A DNA stretch of 64,000 nucleotides from a virus, in the IMG/VR virus record IMGVR_UViG_3300045988_154040; one strand, given 5' to 3'. The translations under genes were made by a program, and so were the position numbers. Below, in pieces: positions 8,745 through 55,025 of this stretch (the first letter of the stretch is position 1; each line of letters starts with the position of its first letter). Below the pieces are notes generated by a model. That model was given only the letters and a program-made list of their open reading frames with translations, was not told the origin of the DNA and did not search any database.

Positions 8745-8891
8745 ATGAATAATTATCAGTACGTAAACATTATAATAAATATAAATTGTAAGGAAGGGTG
8801 TAAACGTACTGCTAAAGAGGGTATAAATCCTTTATCTATTTTAATAAATATGGCTGTTGGCATTATAACAATAGTTAAATTTATTAGATAA
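8745..8891 (+). CDS. small hydrophobic-tailed peptide (48 aa) on the opposite strand to all neighbours
   Basis: Hand-translated MNNYQYVNIIININCKEGCKRTAKEGINPLSILINMAVGIITIVKFIR. RBS AAAGGAG at 8735-8741. A weak hairpin plus T-run follows at about 8913-8935. Confidence 0.35.
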   Translation: MNNYQYVNIIININCKEGCKRTAKEGINPLSILINMAVGIITIVKFIR

Positions 8892-8975
8892 AGTATAACC
8901 ATTATTTTTTTCAAGTCCCCTGTGTGTCATCACCGGAGACTTTTTATATTATGTCCACATCAATTATTTATTATT

Positions 8976-9164
8976 TTATGTTAATATAAATATCCATAAA
9001 ATAATTATGGTTATTATCCAAATTATTTTCATTTCTTTTTTATAAGTATCATTTTTATTAAATATTATCCATATAGATGTAAATATACAAATAATAGTAG
9101 CAATTAATTGAAGCATAAATAAAAATATTGTCATAAATTTCCTTTCTAATATTTCTATATGCAT
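8976..9164 (-). CDS. small two-TM membrane protein
   Basis: Two hydrophobic stretches: FLFMLQLIATIICIFTSIWIIF and IIWIITIIILWIFIL. Confidence 0.5.
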   Translation of the reverse strand: MHIEILERKFMTIFLFMLQLIATIICIFTSIWIIFNKNDTYKKEMKIIWIITIIILWIFILT

Positions 9165-9199
9165 TCCCCTAAATTATATTGGGGGGGATTAAAATATTT

Positions 9200-9616: not shown

Positions 9617-9863
9617 TGTTCTTTCTCCAATTTTCTGTGTTCCAACATATATTACATGGAATTTCTTGTTCTACACAATCATTTATTTTTTCTAAAATTA
9701 TAGAAAATTCGTCAGGGCAATATGCATTGATGATTATATTCTTTTGTTCTTCTTCTGTTAAAGAATTCCAGTTTTCTTCATTCCTAACATTTAGCATTTT
9801 ATTTTTTTCAAGTATAGTCTCTTTACAATTTTGTAACACATAATCTATAACTTTAATTTCCAT
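9603..9863 (-). CDS. hypothetical Cys-containing protein
   Basis: 86-aa ORF whose stop overlaps the start of the next gene. Confidence 0.5.
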   Translation of the reverse strand: MEIKVIDYVLQNCKETILEKNKMLNVRNEENWNSLTEEEQKNIIINAYCPDEFSIILEKINDCVEQEIPCNICWNTENWRKNNDEE

Positions 9864-21453: not shown

Positions 21454-22362
21454 ATGGAAGTGATTGCGATGGCCACAGTTGTTAAAAAAATTCGTCCCAT
21501 AACTGATTCTTATTGTATTAGGTGCAATAGACAGTATCCAATAGAAAATTTTTACAAAAGTGATAATATTCATCACACTACAGGAGTAATGCCTTATTGT
21601 AAAAATTGTACTAAGGAAATGTATCAGGACAATTTAAAAAGATTTAAAGATATAAGAAGTGCTTTATGGGTGACATGCAGTGAAGTTGGAATACCCTTTA
21701 TGGAAAAAGTCTATGATAATCTTATGGAAAAAGTTAAAAAAGCTCGTGATGAAAAAGTTTTAACCAGTACATATAACTATTGGGGAAATTTTATTTCTAG
21801 TTATATGGGATTAAAGAAAAAAACAGATAAATGGGATAGTTTTGGAGTAACAGATGTAGATAAATCCGAAGCTATTTTAGATATTAGTCAAGAAAAATTA
21901 AGAAAAGAAAAACTCAAACAGTTTATTTTAGACTGGGGAGAACAAGATGAAGATGATTATGCGTATCTTGAATATCGGTGGGATTTTTATACAGAAGATA
22001 TAAACCTTACTCCTGCTCAGGAGAGTTTGTATAGAAAATTATGTATTTCAGAGTTAGATTATCGTAAAGCAAAAGAAAATGAAGAAAGCGGAAAAGAACA
22101 GCAAGAATCTATTCTTAAGCTTATGAAAACATTAAAAATTGATAATTTTACTCAAAAGAAAGAAAAAACTCTTACAGAACAAATGCTGGAAAAACAGATT
22201 TGGGAGATTGAGAACACCACTCCGGCTGAATGTGAAGATTTGAATAAATACAAAGATTTTTGTAATATTGAATCTGATTGGTTTAAGTATATTGTTTCTG
22301 CTGTTAAGAATTTGATTGCAGGAACGAAAGAATATCCTCTAATTCCCAGAAAACGTGATTAG
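21454..22362 (+). CDS. zinc-finger protein; candidate small terminase by position only
   Basis: CIRCNRQ...CKNCTKE at the N-terminus; lies immediately upstream of TerL. Confidence 0.4.
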   Translation: MEVIAMATVVKKIRPITDSYCIRCNRQYPIENFYKSDNIHHTTGVMPYCKNCTKEMYQDNLKRFKDIRSALWVTCSEVGIPFMEKVYDNLMEKVKKARDEKVLTSTYNYWGNFISSYMGLKKKTDKWDSFGVTDVDKSEAILDISQEKLRKEKLKQFILDWGEQDEDDYAYLEYRWDFYTEDINLTPAQESLYRKLCISELDYRKAKENEESGKEQQESILKLMKTLKIDNFTQKKEKTLTEQMLEKQIWEIENTTPAECEDLNKYKDFCNIESDWFKYIVSAVKNLIAGTKEYPLIPRKRD

Positions 22363-22376
22363 TAGGAGGATAAATT

Positions 22377-25889: not shown

Positions 25890-27515
25890 ATGAAAAATAG
25901 TCCAAGGATAATTCCTAACCAACAGCAGAATAATATTTCTGTTTCTGATTCTGTTATGTTATCAGAACAAGAAGCATACGATGTAATAAAATTTGCAAAT
26001 AATTTATACGGCTATGAAAGTTTTGGTGTATATACCCCATGGCTTTCTAATGAAAATTTAATCAATCTTAATAATAATTCACGCATTCCTACTAATGTGG
26101 AATCTATTATTAAAGCATTAAAGGATTATAAAAGAGAAGCTAATAATTTGCAAGCTTACAGTGAGTTTATGGAAGTATTTGATATGCTTTATAATCGAAC
26201 TGTTGAATATTATACAAATCTTCTTTCTTTTGATTTACAAATTACATGTAAAAATGTAAAAAATCCCAAAGAGGATTATACTTCGTCCAGATATTTAGAA
26301 GATAAAGCAAGAGTATATAAGTTTCTTGATAATTTTGACTATAAAGCAGAATTTAGAAGAGTTGTAAAACAGTTGTTGCGCCATGAAACTCATTATGTGA
26401 GTTTTAGAAATAACATGAATAAAAATGACCCTAAATATACATTGCAAACATTACCACAGGACAGATGTTTATTAACAGGATATTTTGAAAGTGGTTTATT
26501 GTTTGATTTTGATATGATGTATTTTATTGGTACACCGGGGGTAGACATAAATTGTTATGACCCTATTTTCAAAAAATACTTAAGTGAAGTATGGGCTACT
26601 CAAGGATTAATGGATTATATTCCTTCTAGTCCTTTAAGTAACAGAGATGGAACATTTACACTTTTTCATCAGACCAGCCCTATGGATAATTTCTGGGCTT
26701 TTAAATTTGATATGTCCAATTTTTCTTCTGTACCTTTCTTATCTCCATTTTTGAAGAATGTTTTTAACAATACAGAAATAGCAAAGTTGCAGAAAAATAA
26801 AGATATTGCTTCGGCTTTTGGTTTGCTGTACGGAGAAATGAGAATGCAGGAAAGTGCTAAATCTGGGGAAGTTCCTGATAGATTTGCATTAAATCCAGGA
26901 ACATTAGGTAAATTTATGAGACTGGTATCCGCAGGATTAAAAAGTTCTATGACTTCTGATTCTGTAATTAAATCTGTGGCACTACCTTTGGAAGAAGCAG
27001 AATTTAAACAGTTTGAAGATAAAAATACAGGAATGGCTATAGATGCCGCTAAAGATACTGTAGCTAACGGGGCCTCTGCCAGTAGACTTTTATATACTAC
27101 GGATAGAATGTCTAATGAAGAATTTATAGCGGCAGTAACAGCAGATTATGAAATTGTAGCAAAACTTTATTCACAGTTTAATAATTTCTTAGAATTTTAT
27201 GTTAATCAGAAAACTAAACAGTATAAATTTAAATTTACTTTTGATGGATGTACTCAACCATTTTGGAGAAAACGTAAACAAGATTCTGTAATGAAACTTG
27301 CTGATGTTGGATTAGTTCTTAATTCAAGTGCATACGCGGCGGCATTTGGATATAAGCCCACAGATTTTGATAGACTGTTAGAAGAAGGACATAATGGAGG
27401 AATGTTAGATAACCTTTCTCAGTTACTTTCTATTCATAATATGTCTAATCCAGGGGGGCGACCTCCTTCTGATGAACCTTTGTCAGATAGTGGAGAGAGA
27501 AGCCGTAACCAATAG
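25890..27515 (+). CDS. portal protein (by size and position)
   Basis: 541-aa ORF directly after terL; no motif independently verified. Confidence 0.65.
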   Translation: MKNSPRIIPNQQQNNISVSDSVMLSEQEAYDVIKFANNLYGYESFGVYTPWLSNENLINLNNNSRIPTNVESIIKALKDYKREANNLQAYSEFMEVFDMLYNRTVEYYTNLLSFDLQITCKNVKNPKEDYTSSRYLEDKARVYKFLDNFDYKAEFRRVVKQLLRHETHYVSFRNNMNKNDPKYTLQTLPQDRCLLTGYFESGLLFDFDMMYFIGTPGVDINCYDPIFKKYLSEVWATQGLMDYIPSSPLSNRDGTFTLFHQTSPMDNFWAFKFDMSNFSSVPFLSPFLKNVFNNTEIAKLQKNKDIASAFGLLYGEMRMQESAKSGEVPDRFALNPGTLGKFMRLVSAGLKSSMTSDSVIKSVALPLEEAEFKQFEDKNTGMAIDAAKDTVANGASASRLLYTTDRMSNEEFIAAVTADYEIVAKLYSQFNNFLEFYVNQKTKQYKFKFTFDGCTQPFWRKRKQDSVMKLADVGLVLNSSAYAAAFGYKPTDFDRLLEEGHNGGMLDNLSQLLSIHNMSNPGGRPPSDEPLSDSGERSRNQ

Positions 27516-38961: not shown

Positions 38962-39246
38962 ATGAAAGGAAGGTTTAATATGCCAGATTTTGGAATTGTT
39001 TCTATCCCAGCTATTGTTGTAATTGCTTATCTTGCAGGAAGTATTGTAAAGAATTATACTCCGCTTGAAAACAATAAGATTTTGCCTATTGTTGGTATAG
39101 TGGGGGGTATATGTGGAGTGGTAGGTTTCCATATTATGCCTGATTTTCCTGCTCAGGATGTTATGACAGCGGCGGCAGTGGGTATTGTATCGGGAATGGC
39201 CTCTACGTGGGTAGACCAGACCGTAAAGAAGGTTACAAACAAGTAA
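38962..39246 (+). CDS. holin
   Basis: 94 aa with hydrophobic segments IPAIVVIAYLAGSIV, ILPIVGIVGGICGVVGF and AAAVGIVSGMAS and a basic C-terminus. Resembles Clostridium/Bacillus phage holins, from memory. Confidence 0.7.
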   Translation: MKGRFNMPDFGIVSIPAIVVIAYLAGSIVKNYTPLENNKILPIVGIVGGICGVVGFHIMPDFPAQDVMTAAAVGIVSGMASTWVDQTVKKVTNK

Positions 39247-40333: not shown

Positions 40334-40909
40334 ATGAAAAATGTAATATTAGGTTTAGATATGAGTACCCTTTCTTCTGGGTACTCTGTTTTTGATTCCA
40401 AGAAAAAGTTAGTGGATTATGGAGTTTGGAAACAAGACAAGAAAGTTTTATGGAGAGACAGATGTATAAATATGGGGAATGAACTATCTAAATTAATAGA
40501 TGTTTGTTCCCCTTCTTTGATTTATTGTGAAGATACTATTCTTAATGGTGAGTGTGGTGGCAATGTTCAAACAGTTAAAATGCTTTCTGTATTACAAGGA
40601 ATTGTTTTAGGTGTTTCTAATGTTCATGGAGTAGAAATAAAATTCCTTATGCCGTCTACATGGCGCAAAGATTTAGGAGTGTATGATGGAACAAGAGAAG
40701 GAACTAAACGTCCTATGATGAAATATAAAACAATTCAAGTAGTAAATCAAATTTATGGACTTAATTTATTTTATAATTTAAATATACCTAAGTCTGTAAA
40801 GAATCAAGATGATATAGGAGATGCTATTGGCATAGTACATTCTCAGCTTTTCCCAGTTGAAAATGTAAATGTAAAGAAAGGAATGGGGAGAAAAGCCAAA
40901 ACAAAATAA
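40334..40909 (+). CDS. RuvC-like Holliday junction resolvase
   Basis: ILGLDMS (Asp), IYCEDT (Glu) and NQDDIGDAIGIVH (Asp) are in RuvC order. Confidence 0.75.
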   Translation: MKNVILGLDMSTLSSGYSVFDSKKKLVDYGVWKQDKKVLWRDRCINMGNELSKLIDVCSPSLIYCEDTILNGECGGNVQTVKMLSVLQGIVLGVSNVHGVEIKFLMPSTWRKDLGVYDGTREGTKRPMMKYKTIQVVNQIYGLNLFYNLNIPKSVKNQDDIGDAIGIVHSQLFPVENVNVKKGMGRKAKTK

Positions 40910-43900: not shown

Positions 43901-45455
43901 TGGAGGTGGAGGTGGCGGAAAAGATAGTGCTGAAAAAGCCGCTAAAGAAGCCGCCAAAGCATACAAAGAAGAATTTGAAAAACGTATCAGTGAAATTAAA
44001 TTTAAATTTGATATGGGAGATGTTACTGAACTAGGTTATTGGAAAGAAGTAGATAAAATAGTTCAGGAATTTTATGCAAATAACGAAGCATATGCGGAAG
44101 AATATAGAGACTGGACAACTAAAATACAAAAGGGAATGGTATCTGGTACTAAAGCAAATTTTGAATTAGAAAGAGATGCTTTAGACCATAAATTAGCTAT
44201 GGATTTGATTTCTCAAGAAACTTATTATAGAGAACTTGAGAAATTAAGACAAAAATATTATGCTCAAGACCCTATTTATGCGGCACAGAGTGAAGATATA
44301 GAAGAAGAAATTTACGCTTTTAAGAAAAAGAAAATGAAAGATTTGGCAGAAGAACGTAAGAGACAGCGTAAAAAAGAATGGGATGAAGAAACTGATTGGT
44401 TAAATGAACAGAAGTCTCGTTATGAGACAGCATTTAATTATATTGATTCTTTAGCTCAAAAAGAGATTGACGCTCTTGAAGAACAAAAGAAAGCTATTGA
44501 AGATAAATACAATGCAGAGATAGATAAAATTAATGAAACACAAGATGCTTTAAATGATGAAATTGAATTGCAGGAAAAGTTAGAAGCTTTAGCCAAAGCT
44601 CAGAATACAAAGATTAGAGTTTATCGTGAAGGTGTAGGTTTTGTTTATGAAAATGACCAGTCTGCCGTAGATGAAGCCAAAGCCGCTCTTACACAGTATC
44701 AGAAAGAACAGGATACTAAGAAAGAGATTAAACGATTAGAAGATATTAGAGATGCTACAATTGAAAGTGTAGAGGAACAGATTAAGTATTGGGAAAAGTA
44801 TAGGGATGAATGGAAAGACATGGTTAATTCCTATACAGAACAACAAAACAAACTTATTGCTGAACAGGTTTTAGGTATTTCACTTGAAGGTGAAAACTGG
44901 GAAAAACGTTTAGGAAATTTACAAGATTATGTTGACCGTTATAACAGTATTCTTTCTCAATTAAAACGTAGGGGAGATTATGACGATGATTACGATGACG
45001 ATGATTATGATTATGGTACAGGAGGAAGTGGTGGTTCTGCTGGCGGTGGTGGAACTATTGGCCCTGGCGACCATGCTGGTAGTGGTGGACATTGGGATTC
45101 TAGTGATTCTTCTCATGGCCCTGGTGCTGCCGCTAATGGCACTACAACTGGTCATGGACTTACAATGGTAGGAGAAAAAGGTAGAGAATTAAGAGTTTTA
45201 GGTAGTGGTGTAAATGAAGCTGATGGTATTGTTCCTAATCATTTGACTGAGAATCTTATGAAATTAGGACAATATTCTCCTAGGGAATGGATTAATGCTA
45301 TTACTCATAATCCAGGTAATCAGCAAAATTCAACACAATATTCTTATGTGTTTGATAGTCTGGTATTACCTAATGTAACTAATGCAGATAGTTTTATTAG
45401 CGAATTGAAGAATATTAAAAATCAGGCAATTCAAATGGGAGGAAAGAGGTCTTAA
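40926..45455 (+). CDS. tail tape measure protein (1509 aa)
   Basis: Very long, helix-rich ORF with central TM-like segments and Gly-rich and Asp/Tyr-rich low-complexity tracts; located after the tail tube. Confidence 0.9.
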   Translation: MALNSSNFQILVAATLDAANIQKQLDTISKRYKTIKINLDVDTTSLNNATNSLNNCKQSITETGTAAQNTSQSIGDIINKVTKFGAATLVINKFRQAIVDGYEAVKELDASVTEYRKVSELTDSQMGGFIDTARELGLTVARTADEMVEAATEFKKMGNDDSTSLQLGRLATMFQNIADEAISAGDSASFINSQMKAFNFTANEAIHVLDAVNEVANNFAVSSGDISIALPKVASTMALAGNSFEETIGLLTAGAELIPNQASRIARGLRSITLNLQGLNEDGEQVAGMAASMQEEFDKLGISLLDEQGQIKSTYEIFSELAEIFPKLDKNTQTYYASLIGGKTQVDVVTAILKNFETALNATDTALNSVGSAMEENEKYMDSIQGKLSALNSEFEKFWTEGINSELVKQIIEFGTGVLKLVNDLGGLPTILTAVVGIIATLKGYSLVNYITKITKSITSTIGVIKGLQAEGFTLINVFNGMTSAATKFQIAAGALTLIITATVGIMASLKQKQEEARNAALQAGEAFNSQAQDLNNLLEKYNDIWDSEDSEGEKAKQLAELRETLATQYGLEKEALDNLNGSREAGNKLLNDEIQKRAESTYAQYLSEIQKAQEYLTRTDFSVTLPITIDENTFKDETRNKINQIFGEMAVEFDNGVIAFQGGSEKLKNAMEQAIIYLSKLKEPTENESLLLASLQHDLTKVAEGYNDNTEVIQKYAEVIARNTPEVTKFINGQYETKEAMEEAKKAALNSVGPFKEIKTAIENLTNTAFPEFIVNQEETTTGMHNQKDEADELAKTLKELSGELSGVQGAYDTLSEVAKEYNETGSLTATTLANLLKLNPEYLQALSMENGQLIVNTDMLNQMAQGHATSAYEALTGVTGISAFGNALEGTATAGEAAAQRIAEAGNAAITAGQKAFEGAKGFESLIGSIAAFAGTLKAGISGDKGDGTRDYGHGFDSQVAAYQENERKKFYEDLIAKMHIDTSGGSKKGGGGGGGKDSAEKAAKEAAKAYKEEFEKRISEIKFKFDMGDVTELGYWKEVDKIVQEFYANNEAYAEEYRDWTTKIQKGMVSGTKANFELERDALDHKLAMDLISQETYYRELEKLRQKYYAQDPIYAAQSEDIEEEIYAFKKKKMKDLAEERKRQRKKEWDEETDWLNEQKSRYETAFNYIDSLAQKEIDALEEQKKAIEDKYNAEIDKINETQDALNDEIELQEKLEALAKAQNTKIRVYREGVGFVYENDQSAVDEAKAALTQYQKEQDTKKEIKRLEDIRDATIESVEEQIKYWEKYRDEWKDMVNSYTEQQNKLIAEQVLGISLEGENWEKRLGNLQDYVDRYNSILSQLKRRGDYDDDYDDDDYDYGTGGSGGSAGGGGTIGPGDHAGSGGHWDSSDSSHGPGAAANGTTTGHGLTMVGEKGRELRVLGSGVNEADGIVPNHLTENLMKLGQYSPREWINAITHNPGNQQNSTQYSYVFDSLVLPNVTNADSFISELKNIKNQAIQMGGKRS

Positions 45456-45491
45456 ACCTCACCTCCTTACATAAAAAAGGAGTGAGATATT

Positions 45492-45764
45492 ATGACAGGA
45501 AATTTTGATATAAATAAAGAATTGTTGGATGCAATGAGAATTATCGCAAGACAAGAAATAGAAAAATGTAATAGAGATATTACAAAAACTGCTAGAGTAA
45601 TAGCGGTAAATACTGATAAAACAGTTAAAATAGAAATGGATGGAAAACAATATGATAATATTCCTAATTATAATGGGACTACTTTAACAACTAATGATAT
45701 TGTAAAAGTAACTTATCCTCAAGGACAGACAAGTAATATGTATATATCTGGGGGGGGCGTTTAA
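45492..45764 (+). CDS. small tail protein ending in a G8 tract
   Basis: 90-aa ORF with RBS AAAGGAG; the last codons are TCT GGG GGG GGC GTT TAA. Confidence 0.6.
   Translation: MTGNFDINKELLDAMRIIARQEIEKCNRDITKTARVIAVNTDKTVKIEMDGKQYDNIPNYNGTTLTTNDIVKVTYPQGQTSNMYISGGGV
45750..45757 (+). repeat. homopolymeric G8 tract (potential slippery or contingency site)
   Basis: Read directly from the sequence. Confidence 0.95.
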
Positions 45765-46018
45765 TAATATCGGGTATAACTGATTATGGAATTTTGCAAT
45801 TAAAATCAGAATTTTCAAATCCTAGTAGTCCAGAAGGTTCGCAAATTTCATTTCATGGAATGGGTGGAGATACAGGAAAAGGTCAAGATTATTTGTGTTT
45901 AGATGCTAATAATGGAGATATAAGAATATTTGGTAATTTTGGAGGGGGAGATATTGTAAAAGTGTATGCTTTTACAAATGATGGGTTATATTTTGATGGC
46001 AGGAAAATAGGGCCTTAA
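45758..46018 (+). CDS. downstream tail-protein frame with no ATG or RBS of its own, reachable by a -1 shift in the G8 tract
   Basis: The frame is open from 45758 (CGT TTA ATA ATA TCG...) and continuous with track ORF 45794-46018. That ORF has only a TTG start and no SD sequence. Confidence 0.45.
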   Translation, partial: RLIISGITDYGILQLKSEFSNPSSPEGSQISFHGMGGDTGKGQDYLCLDANNGDIRIFGNFGGGDIVKVYAFTNDGLYFDGRKIGP

Positions 46019-46039
46019 TATAAAGGGGTGAAAAAATAA

Positions 46040-47185
46040 ATGGTAACAAAACCAATACTTAACGCTATGATAGCGTTTGATGCTACCAATCCAGCAACGT
46101 TTACATTTTATTCTGTTAGTGGTAATCAGGTAGTAAAAAATCAGCTTACTATACGAAATAATTCTACAAATCAGATAATCTATCAAAATTCTGTAGAGAC
46201 TTTTAAATTTGAGCATACTGTTCCTGGTGGGACTTTAACTAATGGAACATATTATAATGCTTCTATTATCACTTATGATGCTACAGGAGAAGCAAGTACT
46301 CCTAGTGAGCCTATACAGTTTTGGTGTTATAGCGCACCTACTTTAACTTTTACTAATATTCCTCCTACATTGATTATAAATGCTTCAAGTTTTTTATTTG
46401 AGTTTACTTATAATCAGGCACAAGGAGAATTGTTAAATTACTATTCTGTTATTTTATATAACTCAAATCATAGTGAAATAAATAACAGTGGAGAAATTTA
46501 TCCTGGGGCCGGGACACCTCCGTTATCATTATCTTATTTATTAACAGGTTTTGATGATAGAACTTCTTATTATATAGAGGTAAAGGGGTATACAGTCAAT
46601 GGAACTTTAGTTACTACAGGACAGACTTTGTTTACAGTAACTTATTCTAGTCCTTCTGTTTTTGGTATTTTAGGATTGACAAATGACTGTAAAGAAGGAT
46701 ATATTACAGGAGAATCTATTATTTCTATTATTGAAGGTGAAAGTAATCCTTCTCCACCTATATTTATCGACAATGCTACAGGTCAAGAAATTGACTTAAG
46801 AGGTGAGGGGCATTGGGTAAGATGGGTGAGCGGATTCCAGGCAAATGGAGATTTCACTGCACAATGGTGGATGCGTGACATGAATCCTGATACAGAAATC
46901 AGTTATTTTTACAATAATATAGGACAAAAAATAACCTTTACTTATAGACATGGTTATTATAGAAATGAAACTACTTTAAAAACTTATGTAGAGTTATGGT
47001 GTACTAATAATGCTATAACAGGAGATATTTACTTTAGATATAGTAATTATATTCCCCTTCCTGCTGACACTGATTATTTAACTTTATGGGTAAGAAGGAT
47101 TGGAAATATATACGATATTATGTTGGTTAATTTAGGGCCTGTAATCCCCGTAGCCAAAGTTATAGGAGGTGGAGAGAATGTTTAG
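46040..47185 (+). CDS. tail/baseplate structural protein
   Basis: 381-aa beta-rich ORF directly after the tape measure region. Confidence 0.55.
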   Translation: MVTKPILNAMIAFDATNPATFTFYSVSGNQVVKNQLTIRNNSTNQIIYQNSVETFKFEHTVPGGTLTNGTYYNASIITYDATGEASTPSEPIQFWCYSAPTLTFTNIPPTLIINASSFLFEFTYNQAQGELLNYYSVILYNSNHSEINNSGEIYPGAGTPPLSLSYLLTGFDDRTSYYIEVKGYTVNGTLVTTGQTLFTVTYSSPSVFGILGLTNDCKEGYITGESIISIIEGESNPSPPIFIDNATGQEIDLRGEGHWVRWVSGFQANGDFTAQWWMRDMNPDTEISYFYNNIGQKITFTYRHGYYRNETTLKTYVELWCTNNAITGDIYFRYSNYIPLPADTDYLTLWVRRIGNIYDIMLVNLGPVIPVAKVIGGGENV

Positions 47186-48107
47186 TTTCGTAGGTTACAA
47201 CTTCGTACAAGATAGTAACGCCCTCGACCCATCACCTAGTAGTGTAAATAACATAACTAGCATTAAGTTACAGAATGGTATTTACGATTATTTTCATTTG
47301 ACCAATAATGTAACAGCCGAATATTCTCCTATTGAGCCTTTAGAATGGGCTTATTTGGATATTATCAATGCTAATTTTAATGGTAATATCAATGGTGGTA
47401 ACGTTGAGTTCTTATTGGATTATTTGACAGCTATCAAAGTAAAGAGAAGAATAAAAGGAACTTTCAACTGGGTAACTTTGAAAACAGTTCCAGTTAAAAC
47501 ATTTGATGATTTAAACTTCGTGTTTAGGGATTATCTTAACGGAAATTTTGTGGATTATGAGTATGCTTTGGTTCCAATTCTAAATGGGGCCGAAGGAGAT
47601 TATATAACCAATAGTATTACCAGCCAATTTGCAGGAGTGTTCTTATGTGATAAGGATACTATATACAAATATTATGCTGGTGTTTCTTATGGTAGTGCAA
47701 AACGTGTGAAAAAAGTAGGAGTATTTGAAGCTTTTGGTAGTCAATACCCTATTGTAGTATCAAATGCTTTAACGAATTATCACTCTGGTAGTGTAAGTGG
47801 AACGATTCTTCCTAAAGATTATGATGAAACTAGAGCCTTAAATAGAATGGCGATTGTACAGCAAGGTAAAGAATTAATTGACTTTATTACAAATAATAAA
47901 GCGAAAATTCTAAAGGATTGGAACGGAAATATCTTTTTAATTATGCCAGTTGGTGAACCTACAACCACTTATAATAATAATTGGGGCATGGGTAAGATTG
48001 ATGTAAACTTTGAATATGTGGAAGTAGGAGACGCTAATTCAGAAAGTGATTTAATGTCATTAGGACTGATTGAACCCTCAGTAGATACTTCTACACTTGG
48101 TGAATAA
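47169..48107 (+). CDS. tail/baseplate structural protein
   Basis: 312-aa ORF overlapping the upstream gene. Confidence 0.55.
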   Translation: MERMFSFVGYNFVQDSNALDPSPSSVNNITSIKLQNGIYDYFHLTNNVTAEYSPIEPLEWAYLDIINANFNGNINGGNVEFLLDYLTAIKVKRRIKGTFNWVTLKTVPVKTFDDLNFVFRDYLNGNFVDYEYALVPILNGAEGDYITNSITSQFAGVFLCDKDTIYKYYAGVSYGSAKRVKKVGVFEAFGSQYPIVVSNALTNYHSGSVSGTILPKDYDETRALNRMAIVQQGKELIDFITNNKAKILKDWNGNIFLIMPVGEPTTTYNNNWGMGKIDVNFEYVEVGDANSESDLMSLGLIEPSVDTSTLGE

Positions 48108-48127
48108 AGAAAGGAGTAGATTAATAA

Positions 48128-49543
48128 ATGGCTTTAGTTATTAATCAGGATTTATATACTGTTACAAAGCAAAGAGTTAAAAATCGTCAGATAAAAATTA
48201 ATCTACTCAATTATTCTTATCAGATAGTAGATGAAATTACAGGTAATGTTGTAAGTGGAACCATTAATGTTGATGCTAATAATGACCAGCGAAGGTCTTG
48301 CAACATTACCTTAGTTGTAGATGATAGGAATGAATTTGAGATTAAGAGTGGTGGAAAAATTTGGTTAGATAAGTACATTCAGATTTTTGTTTCTGAGTTT
48401 AATTTCTTAACACAGGAATGGCAGTGGGTTAATTTGGGTATTTATATTATTAATACTCCCACATGGGCTTATGATGCTTCTACAAATGCTTTATCTTTTG
48501 AAGGTTTAGACTTAATGGCTAAATTAACAGGTGTAAGAAATGGATATATTAGTGATATGCCTACACTTATTCCCCAGGGAAGTAATGTACGTAATGCTAT
48601 TATTGAAATTTTGAAATTGGCAGGAGTAGAAAAGTATATTGTAGAAGAATTACCTTATACTTTACCTTATGATATACAGGTAGATATAGGAGATACAGTC
48701 TATAATTTATTGGCTCAATTAAGAGATGTTGATGCTACAAAGGAAATCTTCTTTGATGTAAATGGAGTATTTAAATATCAAAGCATTCCTAGTGGTCATG
48801 ATGAAGCGTCCCTTATAGATGATGATGTATGGAACATAGTTACATTGACAGAATCTATTGTTACAGATTTTGAATCAGTAAAAAATGTAATAAGAGTATT
48901 TGGAAAATCTCTTGACCCAACATATTTTCCTTCGGCAACAACAGTTACAAACAATATAATTAATCTGACAATTGCAGATTATCCTACTAATATTACTGCT
49001 GATACAAGTTTCACTGTAGGTTGGGTAAATCCTATAACTATGGGTGGAAATCCTTTTATAAAAGTAAATTCTAATACTGCTTTACCTCTTGTTAATGAAG
49101 ATGGAACGCCAGCGGCATTAGATAGAGCCAATCAATACTATGTTGCCAGATATCAAAATCAGAAATTTATATTTTTGGGATATCAGCAAATATATGGAGA
49201 AGCTAAAGATGAAAACCCAGAAAGTCCTTTCTATATAGGAAGTACAATAGGAGAAATTGCTATTCCTTTACAGGGTGGAGAATATGACAATATTCATACT
49301 AACGAATTAGCTCGTCAAAGAGCAAAATATGAATTATTCTTGCGTACAAGAATGAATGATGGAGTTAATTTAACATGTGTTCCTATTTGGTGGCTGGATG
49401 TAAATATAGTTGTTTCGTATACAGTAAAGGATACTAATACGCCAAAACAATATATTATTAAAAGCTTTTCAGCGGATTTGCAAGAAACTGGTGTTCAGAA
49501 TATCAGTATGATATCTTATTATCCGCAATATGAATCTTTTTAA
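48128..49543 (+). CDS. tail-associated (Tal/hub-like) structural protein
   Basis: The N-terminal pattern ...GNVVSGTINVDANNDQRRSCNITLVVDD resembles siphovirus tail hub/minor tail proteins (recalled). Confidence 0.5.
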   Translation: MALVINQDLYTVTKQRVKNRQIKINLLNYSYQIVDEITGNVVSGTINVDANNDQRRSCNITLVVDDRNEFEIKSGGKIWLDKYIQIFVSEFNFLTQEWQWVNLGIYIINTPTWAYDASTNALSFEGLDLMAKLTGVRNGYISDMPTLIPQGSNVRNAIIEILKLAGVEKYIVEELPYTLPYDIQVDIGDTVYNLLAQLRDVDATKEIFFDVNGVFKYQSIPSGHDEASLIDDDVWNIVTLTESIVTDFESVKNVIRVFGKSLDPTYFPSATTVTNNIINLTIADYPTNITADTSFTVGWVNPITMGGNPFIKVNSNTALPLVNEDGTPAALDRANQYYVARYQNQKFIFLGYQQIYGEAKDENPESPFYIGSTIGEIAIPLQGGEYDNIHTNELARQRAKYELFLRTRMNDGVNLTCVPIWWLDVNIVVSYTVKDTNTPKQYIIKSFSADLQETGVQNISMISYYPQYESF

Positions 49544-49554
49544 GGAGGTAAGAA

Positions 49555-50301
49555 ATGAGTGTATTATATCCATCACTTTCTAATACAACGTTTCCAAATA
49601 CTATTCAAAATTTTGTAACTTTTTTAAATATTACTCCTACTGATGCTTCTTTGATTCAGAAATATCAACTTGCAGTACAGTCGGGTAATATGGAAGAAGC
49701 AGAAAATATATTTGGGCAGATACAGAATGGTAATCAGAAAATTATTGATGCTACTAAATTAAATACTTTAGTAGACACTACAGTTGCATTAGAAAACTTT
49801 TTTAAAACTGATGTACTTCCTTATATAGAAGTTAAACAGAGTGAATGGCAAAATATCATTAATTTATTTAATTATAAGGGAGTTTTTAGTCCTGTTACAA
49901 CGTATGTTAAGAATAATTTTGTAACTTATACTTATAATGGTGTAGAATATGTATATATTGCTACCAGTAATCCTCCTGTTGGAGCCGACCCAACAAATAC
50001 GGCTTATTGGAGAAATATTTCTATTCGTGGAGAAAAAGGTGATTCTGGTGTAGGAATGTCTTTTCTTTATGCATGGGATTCTACAGTTCATTATTCAGAA
50101 CAGAATATAGTAACTTATGGAAATTATGTATGGGGAGCGACTAAGGAAAACCAAAATCAAGCCCCTTTTGAGGGTTCGGAGTATTGGTCTAACATAGGTA
50201 CGATTAGACCCCGTGTAATCCCTGTTACCAGTTCTTACCCGGCTTTGCAGGAGACAGGAGATTTATGGTTTAGAGTTTTATCAGATGGGGGGGGTATATA
50301 A
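49555..50301 (+). CDS. tail fibre/receptor-binding protein with carbohydrate-binding-like repeats; ends in a G8 tract
   Basis: Repeats of type Y..NNFVTY..GVEYVY.A...P.....P.N..YW. Tandem paralog of 50305-51015. Confidence 0.55.
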   Translation: MSVLYPSLSNTTFPNTIQNFVTFLNITPTDASLIQKYQLAVQSGNMEEAENIFGQIQNGNQKIIDATKLNTLVDTTVALENFFKTDVLPYIEVKQSEWQNIINLFNYKGVFSPVTTYVKNNFVTYTYNGVEYVYIATSNPPVGADPTNTAYWRNISIRGEKGDSGVGMSFLYAWDSTVHYSEQNIVTYGNYVWGATKENQNQAPFEGSEYWSNIGTIRPRVIPVTSSYPALQETGDLWFRVLSDGGGI

Positions 50302-50304
50302 AAG

Positions 50305-51015
50305 ATGGAAAATCTATCTGATTTTAGTGGTACAGGTTTTGACATTATTAAATGGCAGGACTTAGCTTTAAAAAATGAAAATTTAAGACAACAGTTTATG
50401 CAGTATTTTAAAGAAGGGTACTATTCTCAGGCATTGGCTCTTATTACAAATAATGCTGATATTGATTCAGAAACAGTAAGACCAGAAGTGTTTAATATGA
50501 TAAATACTTCTTTAACTTATTTACAGAATCTTTATTATAATTCTGTAGAAGTAGTATTATCAGAAGATGAACAGCAATTTCAGTATATGATAAACAATTT
50601 TATAAATAAAAAAGAATTTAGTGCAACAGAAGTGTATGTTCCTTATAATTTTGTAGTTTATAATGAACAGATATATATGTGTATAAAAGAAACTACGGCA
50701 GGTATTCTTCCTACAAATACAGATTATTGGCTTCTAATTGGATTAAAAGGAGAGATAGGAGCTACAGCTATTGATATTACTTTAAGATATAAATGGGATT
50801 ATAAGATTACTTATTCTCCTAAAGATGTAGTAACTTATAATAATGTGTTATACGTAGCAAAAAATAGAAATAATAATTCTCAACCTGACATTAATCCAGA
50901 AGATTGGGAAGTATTTATGACTATTCCCAGAGCCAAGATTATTGTATCTGCAACAGAACCTAATCCAGATGCATTAGTTGAGGGAGGACAATGGTGGAAA
51001 ATTATTGTAGGGTAA
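50305..51015 (+). CDS. tail fibre/receptor-binding paralog
   Basis: YVPYNFVVYNEQIYMCIKETTAGILPTNTDYW and YSPKDVVTYNNVLYVAKNRNNNSQPDINPEDW parallel the repeats in the upstream gene. Confidence 0.55.
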   Translation: MENLSDFSGTGFDIIKWQDLALKNENLRQQFMQYFKEGYYSQALALITNNADIDSETVRPEVFNMINTSLTYLQNLYYNSVEVVLSEDEQQFQYMINNFINKKEFSATEVYVPYNFVVYNEQIYMCIKETTAGILPTNTDYWLLIGLKGEIGATAIDITLRYKWDYKITYSPKDVVTYNNVLYVAKNRNNNSQPDINPEDWEVFMTIPRAKIIVSATEPNPDALVEGGQWWKIIVG

Positions 51016-51345
51016 TTCCTGCCAAAATACAAGGCGCTTATAGTGACCGATTTAAAAAGGTTGAAACTACATGGGAAAAAGATACAATAGGATTTTTTTA
51101 ATTCAGCAGGAGTAGAGGTAGATTATAAATATTTATCTTTTAGGGTTCCTGCTGATATTAACCCAAATGAGTATATGGATGCACACCCCACTACAGTATT
51201 ATTTATTCCATATAAAAGTGGAAATGATTATTCTGTAAGTGAAACCATAGAAGATTCTAATGAAGGAAATGAATCAGCTATTGAATTATCTCAATTGAAT
51301 AGCTTTTTTACCCTTCACACGAATGAGTGTTTCTTTTTATATTGA
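50991..51345 (+). CDS. two-frame ORF: 50991-51101, then the +1 frame 51100-51345, joined at T7-TAA
   Basis: ATG at 50991 with GGGAGG 3 nt upstream. Frame 0 ends GGA TTT TTT TAA. The +1 frame is open for 81 further codons with no start of its own (NSAGVEVDYKYLSFRVPADINPNEY...). Confidence 0.35.
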
Positions 51346-51451
51346 GCCTACTCAAATAGGCTTAACATATTCTGCTGATGTAGACACGTATATGAAGAAT
51401 AATTATACGTGATTGATATAAATATAAAAATAATTGAAAGGAGTGGTAAAA

Positions 51452-51817
51452 ATGGCTCAAATAAACATTGAAATGAACGTAAAAAATGATACTGGGTATG
51501 ACCAGCTTCATCCTAAAACCAATGTTAATGTAGTAGAAGGAGCGGCCCCTAAATCCATAGGGGCTACTGCTACTGCCACTGTAGCAGGATGGACAGGGAC
51601 AGTCGCACCATTTACGCAAGTAATTGATATAGCAGGAGTTACAGCTACAAATAATATTGAAGTTGGTTTGGCTTCTACTATCACTTTAGACCAGATTAAA
51701 ATGGCTATGAAATGTATTATTCAATGTACGGCTCAGGCTAATAATCAAATAACTTTGACAGCGTTTAAAAATAAACCTACAATTGATTTACCTATTCAAG
51801 TAATAATTTTAGGTTAA
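51452..51817 (+). CDS. tail-fibre-associated small structural protein
   Basis: MAQINIEMNVKNDTGYDQLHPKTNVNVV... has an N-terminus typical of Firmicutes phage fibre proteins (recalled). RBS AAAGGAG lies 8 nt upstream. Confidence 0.55.
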   Translation: MAQINIEMNVKNDTGYDQLHPKTNVNVVEGAAPKSIGATATATVAGWTGTVAPFTQVIDIAGVTATNNIEVGLASTITLDQIKMAMKCIIQCTAQANNQITLTAFKNKPTIDLPIQVIILG

Positions 51818-51875
51818 GAATAAAATAATTTTTAATTTGACTGTATAAAAATTTAAAGAAAGGAAACAATTAAGT

Positions 51876-52160
51876 ATGGCTATAATGAATAACTTTACTT
51901 CTGGTGGTGCGCCTACAGATGAATTAACAGCAACCCCAGCAGAAGTAATGAAAGGCTATAAATTTTTAGGCAGTGGTTCTGATGATGAACAAGTAGGTAC
52001 ATTAGAATTAACAGGAAATGCTTTAGTTAATCATGTGTTACAAGGAGAAACATTTTATAGTACAAATCCTAAACAGAAACTTACAGGTACTATGACTGTA
52101 AATAGTATATTTTCTTTTAAGGCGCAAGTAGTCAGTGGGCGGCAGATTTTGTTTACGTAG
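51876..52160 (+). CDS. tail-fibre-like protein, probably truncated
   Basis: TATPAEVMKGYKFLGSG...LTGTM motif. After the TAG stop, the sequence continues in broken frames as QNPTTATRKPF / SSDGRNRVIYRS. Confidence 0.45.
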   Translation: MAIMNNFTSGGAPTDELTATPAEVMKGYKFLGSGSDDEQVGTLELTGNALVNHVLQGETFYSTNPKQKLTGTMTVNSIFSFKAQVVSGRQILFT

Positions 52161-52297
52161 CAAAATCCGACTACTGCGACAAGGAAGCCGTTCTAGTGAT
52201 GGCAGAAATCGTGTTATTTATAGAAGTTTTGGTATCATTTTAGCCATTCTTCATTAATTTTAAAAATAAATTTTAAGAATGAAAGGAAAAGAAAGAA

Positions 52298-53017
52298 ATG
52301 ATTGTACATCAAGTTTATGCATATATTTGGAAAGAAACTGTAATGAATGTAGTAGTGTGTGATAATTACGAATTAGCTAACAATAATGCTAAAGGTAGCT
52401 ATGGAAATGATGCTTTTGCTGTAGATTGTTTGCAGTATCCATGTCAAATTGGAGATAAATATATTGATGGAAAATTCTATAAAGTTCCCGAAGCTCATGT
52501 AGATGGGGTTATGGTTGCTACAGCTATAGAAAATATTCCTGTAGATATTAGCAAATTGGTAGAAATTGAATATGTTCCAACACAGGAACAGGAGGTTGCT
52601 ACTTTAAAAGCGCAGAATGCTATATTAGCTACTGCTACTTCGTTTATTGCTAATACTTTTACAGATGAACAGGCCGTTAAAGTAGTAGACCTTTATCCTT
52701 TTTGGTCAGGCAATGGTGTAAAATACGAAGTAGGAGAAAGAGTAAAGGATGAAAATTATATTCTTTACAAAGTCATTACTGCTCATACCTCACAAGAAGA
52801 TTGGAAGCCTTCTGTATCTCCTTCTTTATTTGCAGAGGTTTTGGTGGAAAATCCTAATGAAATTACAGATTGGAAACAGCCTGATAGTACAAATGGGTAT
52901 GAAAAGGATATAGTAGTACGTCATAATGGAAAGGAGTGGAAGTCCCTTGTAAATAATAATGTATGGGAACCAGGAGTAGTAGGAACAGAATCTTTATGGG
53001 AAGAAGTAATAAAATAA
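52298..53017 (+). CDS. protein with CBM5/12-like carbohydrate-binding repeats (fibre or assembly factor)
   Basis: YEVGERVKDENYILYKVITAHTSQEDWKPSVSPSLF and VVRHNGKEWKSLVNNNVWEPGVVGTESLWEEV. Confidence 0.5.
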   Translation: MIVHQVYAYIWKETVMNVVVCDNYELANNNAKGSYGNDAFAVDCLQYPCQIGDKYIDGKFYKVPEAHVDGVMVATAIENIPVDISKLVEIEYVPTQEQEVATLKAQNAILATATSFIANTFTDEQAVKVVDLYPFWSGNGVKYEVGERVKDENYILYKVITAHTSQEDWKPSVSPSLFAEVLVENPNEITDWKQPDSTNGYEKDIVVRHNGKEWKSLVNNNVWEPGVVGTESLWEEVIK

Positions 53018-53099
53018 ATATTAAGGGAGAAAATAAAACATAGAGAATAATTTAGTAATATTTTTGCCGATTTTTATTCAGTAGATTTATTTTTATATA

Positions 53100-53128
53100 T
53101 TGAATAAAATAGTAATAAATAATATATA
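53100..53128 (+). promoter_or_regulatory. sigma-A-type promoter TTGAAT-17 bp-TATATA
   Basis: TTGAAT at 53100-53105 and TATATA at 53123-53128. Confidence 0.45.
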
Positions 53129-53200
53129 AAATACTCTAAATAGAGTATAATATAAATGTAACTAAAAAAATAAAGGTTTTAAGAAAGAGAGGAATTTAAA

Positions 53201-53362
53201 ATGGCAAATTTTAAAGGTCATAGTGACAAGAGGACACCGGAGCAGAGAAAGAATGATGCTATCAATCGTAGGGAAGATTTAACTCCTACAGCTTTAAACA
53301 CAGAAAAGAATTATGTAACCACAGGGCCGGCTACTGGTAAATCAGACGAACGTAAAGATTGA
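53201..53362 (+). CDS. small highly charged hydrophilic protein (53 aa)
   Basis: Hand-translated MANFKGHSDKRTPEQRKNDAINREDLTPTALNTEKNYVTTGPATGKSDERKD. It has its own promoter and terminator. Confidence 0.5.
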   Translation: MANFKGHSDKRTPEQRKNDAINRREDLTPTALNTEKNYVTTGPATGKSDERKD

Positions 53363-53369
53363 TGTTATT

Positions 53370-53393
53370 AAGGGAGGGATAATATCCTCCCTT
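53370..53393 (+). terminator. rho-independent terminator
   Basis: AAGGGAGG(G)AT-AAT-ATCCTCCCTT. Confidence 0.6.
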
Positions 53394-53438
53394 TACATAT
53401 TTTTAGAATATGAATAAAAGGAAAAGAGGGAATAAAAA

Positions 53439-53884
53439 ATGAATATACTAAATCGTTTTCCAACGGGGGGGTTATCTTCTGAGGTCACAGCAACTAACAA
53501 CCAACTTTTAACAGGGTATACAGCTATAACGGCTAACTCAATCTGTTACTCTTATGAAGGGTTCTAATATAACACCTAATACATCTGTAGTAACAATTCC
53601 TACCAAGAAGTTATAATTTAATTCCTTATAATTTAATTAATGTTGAAGTAAATCCTCCAACTTCATCTATTTCTTTATCTACAGTTTATAGGAGTATAGT
53701 ATTTCATTATGGGAGCGATTTAAATACAAGAGATGCATTTATAAATTCAACGAAACCATCAACTTATGTATTTAGTTTTGATATATCAGGAATAAATGCA
53801 ACTAAATGGTTTACGTTTATGTTCTTTTATAAAGAAAATACCAGTGCTTATAAAGGAATTATAAATCGTATTTGGTTTAGCTAA
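53439..53884 (+). pseudogene. frameshifted tail-fibre-like gene (paralog of the 51876-52160 N-terminus) containing a G7 tract
   Basis: MNILNRFPTGGLSSEVTATNNQLLTGYTAITANS parallels MNNFTSGGAPTDELTATPAEVMKGYKFLGSG. The reading frame breaks twice into three open segments ending at 53884. Confidence 0.5.
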
Positions 53885-53902
53885 AAAGAAAGGAAGATTA
53901 TT

Positions 53903-54823
53903 ATGGCAGATTTAAAAACGGCAAAAGGACTAGTGGAATTTGCACAGTCTAAAATTGGTACACATTATGCATATGGAGCAAAAGGAGAGATACTTACTAA
54001 AACAAAAATATATTCCTGGGCTAGAATGTATCCTAACATTTATACTCAGTCTTATATAAACCAGCTTTTAAAATGGGTTGGTGAGTATGCAGTTGATTGT
54101 TCTGGTCTTATTTCATGGTATACTGGTATCATTCGTGGTTCCAGTAATTTTGAACAGACTGGTACAAACAAGATACAGCCTTCAAAACTTGATGATGGTA
54201 AGTTTGGTTGGGCGGTATGGAAAAATGGTCATATCGGCATTGTAGAGAGTTCTACCAAGGTCATAGAGGCAAAAGGTATCAATTATGGCACCATCCGAAG
54301 CAACAGGACTTCTACCCCATGGGTAAACGCTTTCCAGATAAAGGATATTAATTATCAGGCAGAAGAAGGTTTACAGGGATGGAAAAAGGTTAAGGATGGA
54401 TATGTATATTTTCAGAATGGAGTTATGCTGAAAAATGCATGGGTAAGGGATAAAGACAGATGGTATATTTTAGCTGGTGATGGCCTAATGATTCATGACG
54501 ATTGGTTTTATGAGAATGGAAGATGGTATTATTTGGCTGGGGATGGCGGTATGATTTCTAACCAGTGGCTTTTATATAAGGATAATTGGTATTATTTTGA
54601 TGGGGCTGGGGTTTGTTTAACAGACACATGGTATAAATATAATGGAGACTGGTATTACTTAGATGGTACAGGAGCTATGCATAAAGGAATGCTTTATGAT
54701 AATGGTGAATGGTATTATTTGGATAACGAAGGTAAATTAGTTACAAATAAAAGTATTGTGTTTGATGCTAAAGATGATGGAGCATTAAAATTTGCTGGAC
54801 TTGTAAATAAATTTGATGAATAA
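53903..54823 (+). CDS. endolysin: NlpC/P60-type peptidase plus choline-binding-type cell-wall repeats
   Basis: AVDCSGLISW...GHIGIV (Cys/His). The C-terminus has five to six G(W/D)xxxxGxWYYLxxxG repeats. Confidence 0.85.
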   Translation: MADLKTAKGLVEFAQSKIGTHYAYGAKGEILTKTKIYSWARMYPNIYTQSYINQLLKWVGEYAVDCSGLISWYTGIIRGSSNFEQTGTNKIQPSKLDDGKFGWAVWKNGHIGIVESSTKVIEAKGINYGTIRSNRTSTPWVNAFQIKDINYQAEEGLQGWKKVKDGYVYFQNGVMLKNAWVRDKDRWYILAGDGLMIHDDWFYENGRWYYLAGDGGMISNQWLLYKDNWYYFDGAGVCLTDTWYKYNGDWYYLDGTGAMHKGMLYDNGEWYYLDNEGKLVTNKSIVFDAKDDGALKFAGLVNKFDE

Positions 54824-54836
54824 TGGAGGTAAAAAT

Positions 54837-55025
54837 ATGGTAACTATGAGTAAGTGGGGGGGGGCAAACGGTACTGCCGAAGCAGAATTTTGTGGCTTAA
54901 GTACTGATAATAAACCCGTAGATGAAGGAATTCCTAATGGTTCATCATTTTTTGAGATGGATACATTTAAAGTATATTTCTTTAATAAAGCGACAAAAAC
55001 ATGGATAACTGAGGGAGGTGTTTAA
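54837..55025 (+). CDS. small protein with a G9 tract at codons 7-10
   Basis: ATG at 54837 with GGAGG 7 nt upstream: MVTMSKWGGANGTAEAEFCGLSTDNKPVDEGIPNGSSFFEMDTFKVYFFNKATKTWITEGGV. Confidence 0.55.
   Translation: MVTMSKWGGANGTAEAEFCGLSTDNKPVDEGIPNGSSFFEMDTFKVYFFNKATKTWITEGGV
54856..54864 (+). repeat. homopolymeric G9 tract
   Basis: Read directly from the sequence. Confidence 0.95.

Follow-up and report, generated by a model that had tools for sequence, protein, structure and literature searches.

Why should a phage with an AT-rich genome carry runs of seven to nine guanines inside its genes? The question is raised by IMG/VR virus record IMGVR_UViG_3300045988_154040, a stretch of 64,000 nucleotides (nt), here called the window at its full length, in which G and C together make up 31.0% of the bases (the GC content) and G alone 17.0%. 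A first-pass annotation, made from the letters of the window, had pointed to four such runs in what it took to be tail or fibre genes, here named T1 to T4 (Table 1), and had offered programmed ribosomal or transcriptional slippage, phase variation through polymerase slippage, or homopolymer sequencing error as possible explanations. From comparison with related genomes we propose that the G7-G9 runs are probably hypermutable homopolymer contingency loci, at which slippage during replication would switch accessory genes between an in-frame (ON) and an out-of-frame (OFF) state, that is, phase variation.

By megablast the region is 94-97% identical in DNA to the phages CB457P1, CB457P2, CB473P1, CB473P2 and CB473P3 and 89% identical to PMBT24 (OQ326496.2), a virulent siphovirus of Enterocloster bolteae of ~100 kilobases (kb) that was sequenced by Illumina MiSeq and whose description makes no mention of homopolymers (PMC11035940). 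Judged by its sequence, the window is itself from a virulent E. bolteae siphophage of ~100 kb. The compared set comprised six isolates (the five CB phages and PMBT24), 18 IMG/VR loci and 16 metagenome loci, single loci being cited by L numbers, and the tracts were surveyed in about 30 relatives and in hundreds of public contigs, the latter counted by look-up of exact protein sequences.

A recount found every G run where the first-pass annotation had placed it, as well as one G6 that it had not listed, while C runs of six amount to one in the whole window. Three G runs of at least eight are observed against an expectation of 0.04 (independent bases) or 0.21 (first-order Markov), with a Poisson P of 8e-6 to 1.3e-3, in line with the earlier rough estimate of far fewer than one; for runs of at least seven the figures are five observed and 0.2-0.95 expected. 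The number of G runs drops about 4-6-fold per extra base up to a length of 5-6 and then reaches a plateau (2, 2, 2 and 1 for lengths 6-9). Chance does not account for the long G runs of the window. They also run counter to codon bias: GGG is the rarest glycine codon in the window (8.3% of Gly codons, a 12-fold bias), and the eight other Gly-Gly-Gly triplets counted in its long open reading frames (ORFs) contain it in no case. Outside the tracts the PMBT24 genome likewise avoids slippery glycine coding, its 'glycine rich protein' (45296-46537) having up to eight glycines in a row encoded by DNA that lacks any G run of six or more. Within the same phage group, a more distant clade with a similar GC content and 65-74% protein identity was represented by 19 loci (together ~380 kb). 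These contained two G6 runs, no longer G run and no C run of at least six, and the hinge that corresponds to T1 is encoded there by GGT GGT GGA. Long tracts are thus confined to the clade of E. bolteae phages. All four tracts T1 to T4 lie uninterrupted inside ORFs on the sense strand. Although G is on the sense strand in nine of the 11 placed G or C runs of at least six in PMBT24, we dropped this bias as evidence, since the excess of G over C on coding strands already predicts it.

Table 1. Positions of the G runs and of the genes that contain or adjoin them (window coordinates unless another genome is named; aa, amino acids; SD, Shine-Dalgarno)
Feature	Position	Strand	Remarks
T1 N-terminal module	45492..45764	+	90-aa ORF ending ...NMYISGGGV*, right after tape-measure gene
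T1 tract, G8	45750-45757	+	OFF length, one base below in-frame G9
T1 C-terminal cassette	45758..46018	+	86 codons, RLIISGITDYG...GRKIGP*, out of frame in window
T2 gene	49555..50301	+	248-aa tail-fibre protein ending ...DGGGI*; phrog_26419, E 2.7e-28
T2 tract, G8	50287-50294	+	C-terminal Gly codons; ends 10 nt before ATG at 50305
Downstream fibre paralogue	50305..51015	+	236 aa in window; ribosome-binding site is the T2 tract
'Locked' leader paralogue	51876..52160	+	MAIMNNFTSGGAPTDELTATPAEV..., Gly-Gly as GGT GGT; 94 aa in window; phrog_13589 and phrog_35834
T3 remnant	53439..53567	+	MNILNRFPTGG-LSSEVTATNNQLLTGY..., 42 aa after internal deletions; fibre-like family with LNRFPTGGG leader
T3 tract, G7	53465-53471	+	in frame in window, gene dead
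T4 gene	54837..55025	+	62-aa protein directly after endolysin gene; this phage clade only
T4 tract, G9	54856-54864	+	codons 7-10; ON length in window
G7	9181-9187		intergenic, between two minus-strand genes
G6	27453-27458		
G6	39102-39107		absent from first-pass list
PMBT24 leader copy	45296	+	GGT GGT; locked ON
PMBT24 leader copy (= T3)	47910	+	G10; OFF
PMBT24 leader copy ('gene X')	78343	minus	G9 then C; OFF, unannotated
PMBT24 leader copy	73728	minus	G6; OFF, decayed
Methyltransferase gene, L004 (CB473P1)	22123-22839	minus	tract 22728-22734, C7; intact, 238 aa
Methyltransferase tract, L005 and L006 (CB457P2, CB473P2)	24456-24463		C8; gene split

The lengths of these tracts differ between genomes. 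Across the relatives T1 ranges from G7 to G10, T3 from G6 to G10 and T4 from G7 to G9, with flanks that are identical or near-identical. Since a pairwise census of indels proved too noisy in diverged stretches, a census per tract was used instead, in which tracts of G7-9 differed between the window and its close relatives in 14 of 27 comparisons and A or T runs of 6-7 in 12 of 313 (Fisher P = 5e-11). A G7 in the tape-measure gene was constant in five of five genomes. Between genomes T1, T3 and T4 thus vary in length, and T2 is nearly fixed. Frame followed the integrity of the tract: none of 11 interrupted tracts was out of frame, against 18 of 32 uninterrupted ones (P = 0.001), a difference that is significant in the pooled test only and not at T1 alone (P = 0.11); the interrupting base was A in all cases but one. 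Isolates sequenced from lysates also differ from each other, both at T4 (G9 in CB473P1, G8 in CB473P3, G7 in PMBT24) and at the tract of a methyltransferase gene (C7 or C8). In both wrong frames a stop is met 1-8 codons past the tract, and the tracts are placed either at the 5' end of the gene (T3, T4 and gene X, described below) or at a domain boundary (T1), and therefore OFF is a clean state. Among the genomes compared, these data show a length polymorphism that recurs with consequences for the reading frame, and does so in uninterrupted G tracts only; they further show gated ORFs bearing the mark of selection and a modular build of the T1 protein.

At T1, the first-pass annotation had noted that the upstream ORF ends ...SGGGV* and that a -1 shift within the tract would read on through 46018 to give a fusion of about 175 aa. 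Both observations were borne out. Relatives encode T1 in one continuous ORF, with a length of 175 aa (CB457P1, 267 aa; PMBT24, 169 aa) and with G9 or an interrupted 9-mer (GGGGGAGGG or GGAGGGGGG) coding for the junction ...NMYISGGG-RLIISG.... An intact ORF of 175 or 267 aa with one of these codings is present in 14 relatives, all six cultured isolates are in frame, and the cassette stranded out of frame in the window differs by one residue from the C-terminal half of the annotated 175-aa protein WAX11589.1 of CB473P3. Candidate peptides across the tract in the fused product are YISGGGRLIISG, and the junction peptide is YISGGGRLIISGITDYGILQLK. The G8 form is shared by the window, L027, L028, L029 and L031, among which there are two different downstream cassettes. 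In public contigs the window's 90-aa product (G8) was found on 169, the 175-aa forms (G9) on 95 + 16 and more (~95-126), a 97-aa form (G10) on 10 and a 96-aa form (G7) on two, while the orphan C-terminal fragment of OFF genomes, called as a gene of 74 or 82 aa, was found on 77 + 76 + 15. OFF forms at T1 are seen with several different C-terminal cassettes, and the changes of length are therefore recurrent.

The protein encoded at T1 appears to be built from exchangeable parts. Dozens of proteins with differing C-termini share its N-terminal ~88 aa at 90-97% identity, and the SGGG hinge links this one module to no fewer than 10 unrelated C-termini, among which are the domains H_lectin (H-type lectin), Collar (phage tail collar) and Gp10_C (Gp10_C of phage T4). 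Homology among the T1 alleles (proteins P0001-P0062) stops exactly at the Gly-Gly-Gly hinge and its G tract, a pattern suggestive of recombination at the hinge. In an AlphaFold2 (AF2) model, confident for the N-terminal domain only, residues 1-89 form a helix and a beta-rich domain with a predicted local distance difference test score (pLDDT) of 74-91; weak Foldseek matches of this domain to the OB domains of VgrG and the R2-pyocin spike (E 0.01-0.03) serve as a lead only. We conclude from these sequence relationships that T1 encodes a putative modular tail-tip protein in which the tract toggles the exchangeable cassette and spares the conserved anchor.

T4 would gate a whole gene. The first-pass annotation had placed its G9 at codons 7-10 and expected any change of length to turn the gene off, and this is what is seen in relatives with the window-type flank, where the in-frame length is nine: the window, CB473P1 (G9) and CB457P1 (GGGGAGGGG) are ON, and CB473P3, CB457P2, CB473P2 and L028 (all G8) and L009 (G7) are OFF. 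Genomes with the PMBT24-type flank are in frame at eight, so that L007, L030, L031 and, in an interrupted form, L029 are ON, while PMBT24 (G7) and L020 (G9) are OFF. The product is 62 aa when ON and 20-22 aa when OFF. Exact products of the G9 form were found on 57 contigs, and the G8 form was called on 11 from a GTG start, which in the G8 genomes is created by the tract itself and yields an annotated product of 56 aa; in PMBT24 a spurious ORF on the opposite strand is annotated in its place. The ORF past the tract is nevertheless intact in 13 of 13 complete copies, and its ratio of nonsynonymous to synonymous substitution rates (dN/dS) is 0.05-0.10 between lineages at dS ~1, also for pairs of two OFF genomes. 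By this measure T4 is a real gene under strong purifying selection. The claim that all tracts lie in tail or fibre genes holds for T1, T2 and T3, which are tail or fibre-like, and not for T4, which follows the endolysin gene. Its protein gave no Pfam or PHROG match, its homologues were confined to this clade in a homologue search, and its AF2 model is poor (pLDDT 61), and a tail role for it cannot be demonstrated.

T3 follows the leader MNILNRFPT, and the leader M-x-[IV]-LNRFPT (nine codons) with a Gly-Gly(-Gly) tract heads a set of fibre-like paralogues that is spread over the early as well as the late gene block; the combination was also found at L045 (~25090-25116) and in L047-L055. As had been described, the T3 tract of the window lies in an already frameshifted fibre paralogue, a decayed gene that matches phrog_13589 and phrog_35834, as does the 'locked' leader paralogue. 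In ten genomes the T3 tract measures 6, 6, 6, 6, 6, 7, 8, 9, 9 and 10 bases, and is in frame with the ATG in the window only, every other copy being out of frame. Past the tract an ORF of 271 aa is intact in PMBT24, L020 and L031, cut to 122 aa in L007, L028 and L030, and reduced to 30 aa or less in the window, L009, L027 and L029; its dN/dS is 0.19. Gene X, of the same family, has its full 423-426 aa wherever the tract is in frame or interrupted and 15 aa when it is out of frame, and it is unannotated in PMBT24 and CB457P2 since G9 followed by C puts the frame off. The CB phages further have a gene for a Dam-like N6-adenine methyltransferase (EPFVGGAN...DIPY) with a poly-G run on its sense strand; this gene is absent from the window.

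T2 behaves differently, and serves as an internal control. It is G8 in 12 of the 13 uninterrupted relatives, with GGGGAGGG, which contains GGAGG, in the remainder, and its exact products are found on 42 contigs for G8, on two for G9 and on none for G7. A role as a switch that fuses genes was rejected: the T2 gene and its downstream neighbour share one frame with TAA AAG between them, so that no frameshift can join them, and at G7, G9 or G10 only short extra tails of 7-22 residues result. The distance of 10 nt from T2 to the next ATG falls within the 7-12 nt expected of a G-rich SD core that pairs with the 3' end of 16S rRNA and equals that of the other SD sites of the late operon, and the downstream fibre paralogue reaches 943-952 aa in PMBT24, CB457P1 and CB457P2. 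T2 is thus best read as a putative SD element for the next fibre gene that is held at G8 by selection, rather than as a switch. The 96 nt after the tract (50295-50390), which take in the 5' end of the next fibre gene, fold somewhat better than shuffled sequence (z = -2.09), and may form a translation-initiation structure.

We therefore return to phase variation by replication slippage as the probable explanation of the G7-G9 runs. Slipped-strand mispairing during replication of the phage DNA would add or remove one G, and a change of one base in either direction would move the reading frame in a heritable and reversible manner, so that a phage population would carry a mixture of ON and OFF alleles at several accessory genes. 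At T1, where the tract is set exactly on the Gly-Gly-Gly hinge between two modules, the window is OFF (G8), keeping the 90-aa module and losing an exchangeable cassette, the counterpart of which is a lectin or collar domain in some relatives. At T4 it is ON (G9), with a tract at codons 7-10 gating the entire 62-aa protein, and its T3 is a relic, in which the tract is in frame and the gene is broken by deletions. Among the options of the first-pass annotation it is polymerase-slippage phase variation that gained good support, from near-identical genomes that differ in tract length, the restriction of change to uninterrupted tracts, purifying selection on the gated ORFs, and the 169 OFF contigs at T1. 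We infer from these patterns that replication slippage generates the changes, at a high rate in any one lineage, and that they are reversible; the ON and OFF states would presumably alter adsorption, host range or another fitness trait, and by analogy with other systems the benefit may be bet-hedging.

Several points weigh against this proposal. The compared genomes share kinship, and the counts given above are hence not counts of independent events; many of the metagenome contigs also have a coverage of only 4-6x. At T3 every intact copy of the gene is out of frame and several lineages have a decayed copy, so that loss is as plausible there as switching. 'Locked ON' interrupted alleles are common. 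The near-clonal phages CB457P2 and CB473P2, from two hosts, differ by one single-nucleotide polymorphism in ~98 kb and by no tract change, so that over brief propagation the consensus lengths hold; the pair was set aside as uninformative on short-term instability. Finally, the suggested benefit of bet-hedging is drawn by analogy.

A wider form of the same proposal is possible, and we put it forward tentatively. The tracts might be portable 'switch cassettes' of two forms, the first being the LNRFPT leader with its G6-G10 run, and the second the G9 hinge of T1, which would serve at once as glycine linker, toggle and recombination junction for at least 10 cassettes. Together with the methyltransferase gated by poly-G, these would generate dozens of combinations of adsorption and anti-restriction properties per burst, with some leakage at the level of RNA from OFF alleles.

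The alternative that survives best, though we consider it unlikely, is that the tracts are real mutational hotspots of no adaptive value, in which Gly-Gly-Gly linkers have drifted to GGG and the resulting frameshifts are neutral or mildly deleterious steps towards gene loss. The decay of T3 described above is what would be expected, as is the reduced fibre region of the window, with a fibre of 236 aa instead of ~945 aa and a leader paralogue of 94 aa instead of the 413-432 aa seen in relatives, and interrupted alleles have arisen repeatedly, as if selection favoured stabilisation. Drift of this kind does not sit well with tracts that persist over lineages more than 10% apart in DNA and against a 12-fold codon bias, with the reuse of the same leader and tract in several paralogues on both strands, or with tracts placed where OFF is clean and gated ORFs that keep a low dN/dS in OFF genomes; furthermore, the targets (an adhesin cassette, fibre paralogues and a Dam-like methyltransferase) fit classic contingency loci. 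The gene-loss reading fits T3 and fits the rest poorly. Regarding the fibre region of the window (50305-53900), its smaller size relative to the relatives could reflect real deletions or assembly collapse; the 236-aa fibre state is common to CB473P1 and CB473P3.

Slippage at the level of expression, either ribosomal -1 frameshifting or slippage of RNA polymerase, would give two products in a set ratio (90 aa and 175 aa at T1) and is distinctly improbable. G8 is the commonest public form of T1 and hence viable, the G GGG GGC of the window has the form of a slippery heptamer, with a stop two codons on, and copies of T3 and gene X with intact ORFs are mostly one base over the in-frame length. Long homopolymers are substrates for transcript slippage, and some leaky slippage of this kind from OFF alleles may occur. 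Orthologues are nevertheless simply in frame at G9 or interrupted, including those of all six cultured isolates, and the shift needed varies (-1 for T1 at G8, +1 for T1 at G10, either way for T4), which leaves no conserved frame relationship. The RNA after T1, T3 and T4 folds no better than shuffled sequence (z = +1.07, -0.69 and -0.57), an Rfam scan of 44-56 kb returned a sub-threshold tmRNA match only, and interrupted, non-slippery alleles are frequent, the tract sequence being unconserved. Folding, the Rfam scan and the unconserved frame relationship speak against programmed frameshifting as a designed mechanism, and this option of the first-pass annotation, which we reject in that form, is not supported.

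Sequencing or assembly error, by which all true tracts would be of in-frame length and the G8 of the window at T1 an artefact, is very unlikely and cannot be the principal cause. In its favour, homopolymers of at least eight bases invite errors, the low coverage noted above affects several metagenome contigs, the cultured and deeply sequenced isolates are all in frame at T1, and a lack of out-of-frame interrupted tracts is predicted by error as well. Yet error would have to spare T2, of equal length on the same contigs, as well as the A and T runs and the tape-measure G7, and to strike isolates sequenced from lysates, among them PMBT24 with its Illumina MiSeq data, at T4 and at the methyltransferase tract, and since T1 is split near-evenly between G8 and G9 while T2 stands at 42:2, error alone is insufficient.

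Switching by changes in polyG length, together with its phenotype, has reportedly been shown by experiment in Fletchervirus, a group of Campylobacter phages, by Sorensen and colleagues. The system that we propose resembles it in that the phage is virulent and AT-rich and has several G homopolymers per genome within its coding sequences, at which a change of length shifts the frame; there the progeny are of mixed phenotype, which here would be expected from the comparative data. The Fletchervirus tracts lie in genes of receptor-binding or fibre type; here some T1 cassettes have lectin or collar domains, T2 and its neighbour match tail-fibre PHROGs and T3 is fibre-like, so that a receptor-binding role may apply to some of the products. 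The differences are several. Campylobacter has its own well-documented polyG phase variation and the host here is a Gram-positive clostridial species of the gut; Fletchervirus phages are myoviruses and the phage here is a ~100-kb siphovirus; here one tract toggles a C-terminal cassette alone at a glycine hinge, and a leader with its tract is reused by several paralogues; and what is experiment in the Campylobacter phages is deduction from genome comparison in ours. The hypermutable polyG tracts of Fletchervirus (Sorensen et al., Cell Rep 2021;35:109214) are cited in two sources (PMC11959909, PMC12823448), one of which, a review, places them in receptor-binding proteins and calls the case 'exceptional' (PMC11959909).

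In phages T2 and T4 (not to be confused with the tracts so named) and other phages, contingency loci with runs of at least six and reversible changes of one base have been described and bet-hedging proposed (Gomez, Barrick and Waters, bioRxiv 2025, PMC12633550). A DNA-modification gene is among the targets in both cases, agt there and the Dam-like methyltransferase of the CB phages here. The loci of those phages are mostly poly-A, are found in all gene classes and change at measured frequencies of 1e-4 to 1e-1 (PMC12633550), whereas those described here are rare G runs that go against base composition and codon bias, with alternative lengths fixed in many natural genomes. A megablast of a phage collection matched Enterocloster phages only, which as a near-identity search would miss remote homology to Fletchervirus, and the resemblance to Fletchervirus and to the loci of phages T2 and T4 appears to be one of mechanism, not of ancestry. 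Bacteria such as Campylobacter, Neisseria, Haemophilus and Helicobacter have phase-variable polyG or polyC genes of the Moxon type (PMC4235727, PMC11868660), which share with the present tracts a run of 7-10 G close to the 5' end of genes for surface structures or modification, a frame that sets ON or OFF, and interrupted 'locked' alleles in some strains; here the carrier is a virus with its own replicase rather than a cellular chromosome, and these phages do encode a polymerase of the Pol III alpha type (PMC11035940). The tail-assembly chaperones of the lambda G/GT type are likewise made from two overlapping ORFs near the tape-measure gene, and a -1 shift at a slippery run can join the two. 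Unlike these, T1 lies after and not before the tape-measure gene, its orthologues are a single in-frame ORF, and it lacks a conserved frame relationship and a stimulatory structure.

The tracts of the E. bolteae phages are thus a new example of a principle already known from Campylobacter phages. In the literature searched, experimental phase variation by poly-G in a phage was limited to Fletchervirus, with the 2025 preprint extending contingency loci to the T-even phages, and no report of poly-G switching in Enterocloster phages was found. Our data suggest that the same strategy is used by virulent phages of a Gram-positive commensal and pathobiont of the human gut, and that natural populations are about evenly split between ON and OFF at one putative tail-tip adhesin (T1). 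If this is true, preparations of E. bolteae phages would be mixed populations, and the six cultured phages would offer a simple system for testing bet-hedging in gut phages. There are also consequences for annotation. The GenBank entries for both PMBT24 and the CB phages contain split or dropped genes. The PMBT24 entry lacks T3, T4 and gene X or has them truncated; T4 starts at the GTG in the entries for CB473P3, CB457P2 and CB473P2; and in the last two the methyltransferase gene is split. Prediction of host range from consensus assemblies of gut viromes can be misled in the same way.

Of the runs outside these genes, the G7 at 9181-9187 is at the position given by the first-pass annotation, and it is intergenic; in the sense direction of the minus-strand genes beside it the run is a C7. 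The sequence on that strand is C7-N11-AGGGG-A-ATG, so that the C7 could pair with the SD sequence of the 62-aa gene at 9164..8976; the counterpart of this run in CB457P2 is AGGGGGG. Directly upstream of the tape-measure gene, the usual place of tail-assembly chaperone genes, the window has a gene for a RuvC-like Holliday-junction resolvase (40334-40909; phrog_827, E 7e-10). The tape-measure gene of CB457P1 (L003, 3925-9623) is annotated in two pieces, 3925-5091 and 6210-9623, with an ORF of 474 nt between, which may represent an intron or the insertion of a homing endonuclease. Lastly, a motif GGGGG(G)TACTTTCA(G/A)AC is repeated in the early region of several genomes, at 948-952 and 6508-6512 in the window, at 252 in PMBT24 and at 94308 in CB457P2.

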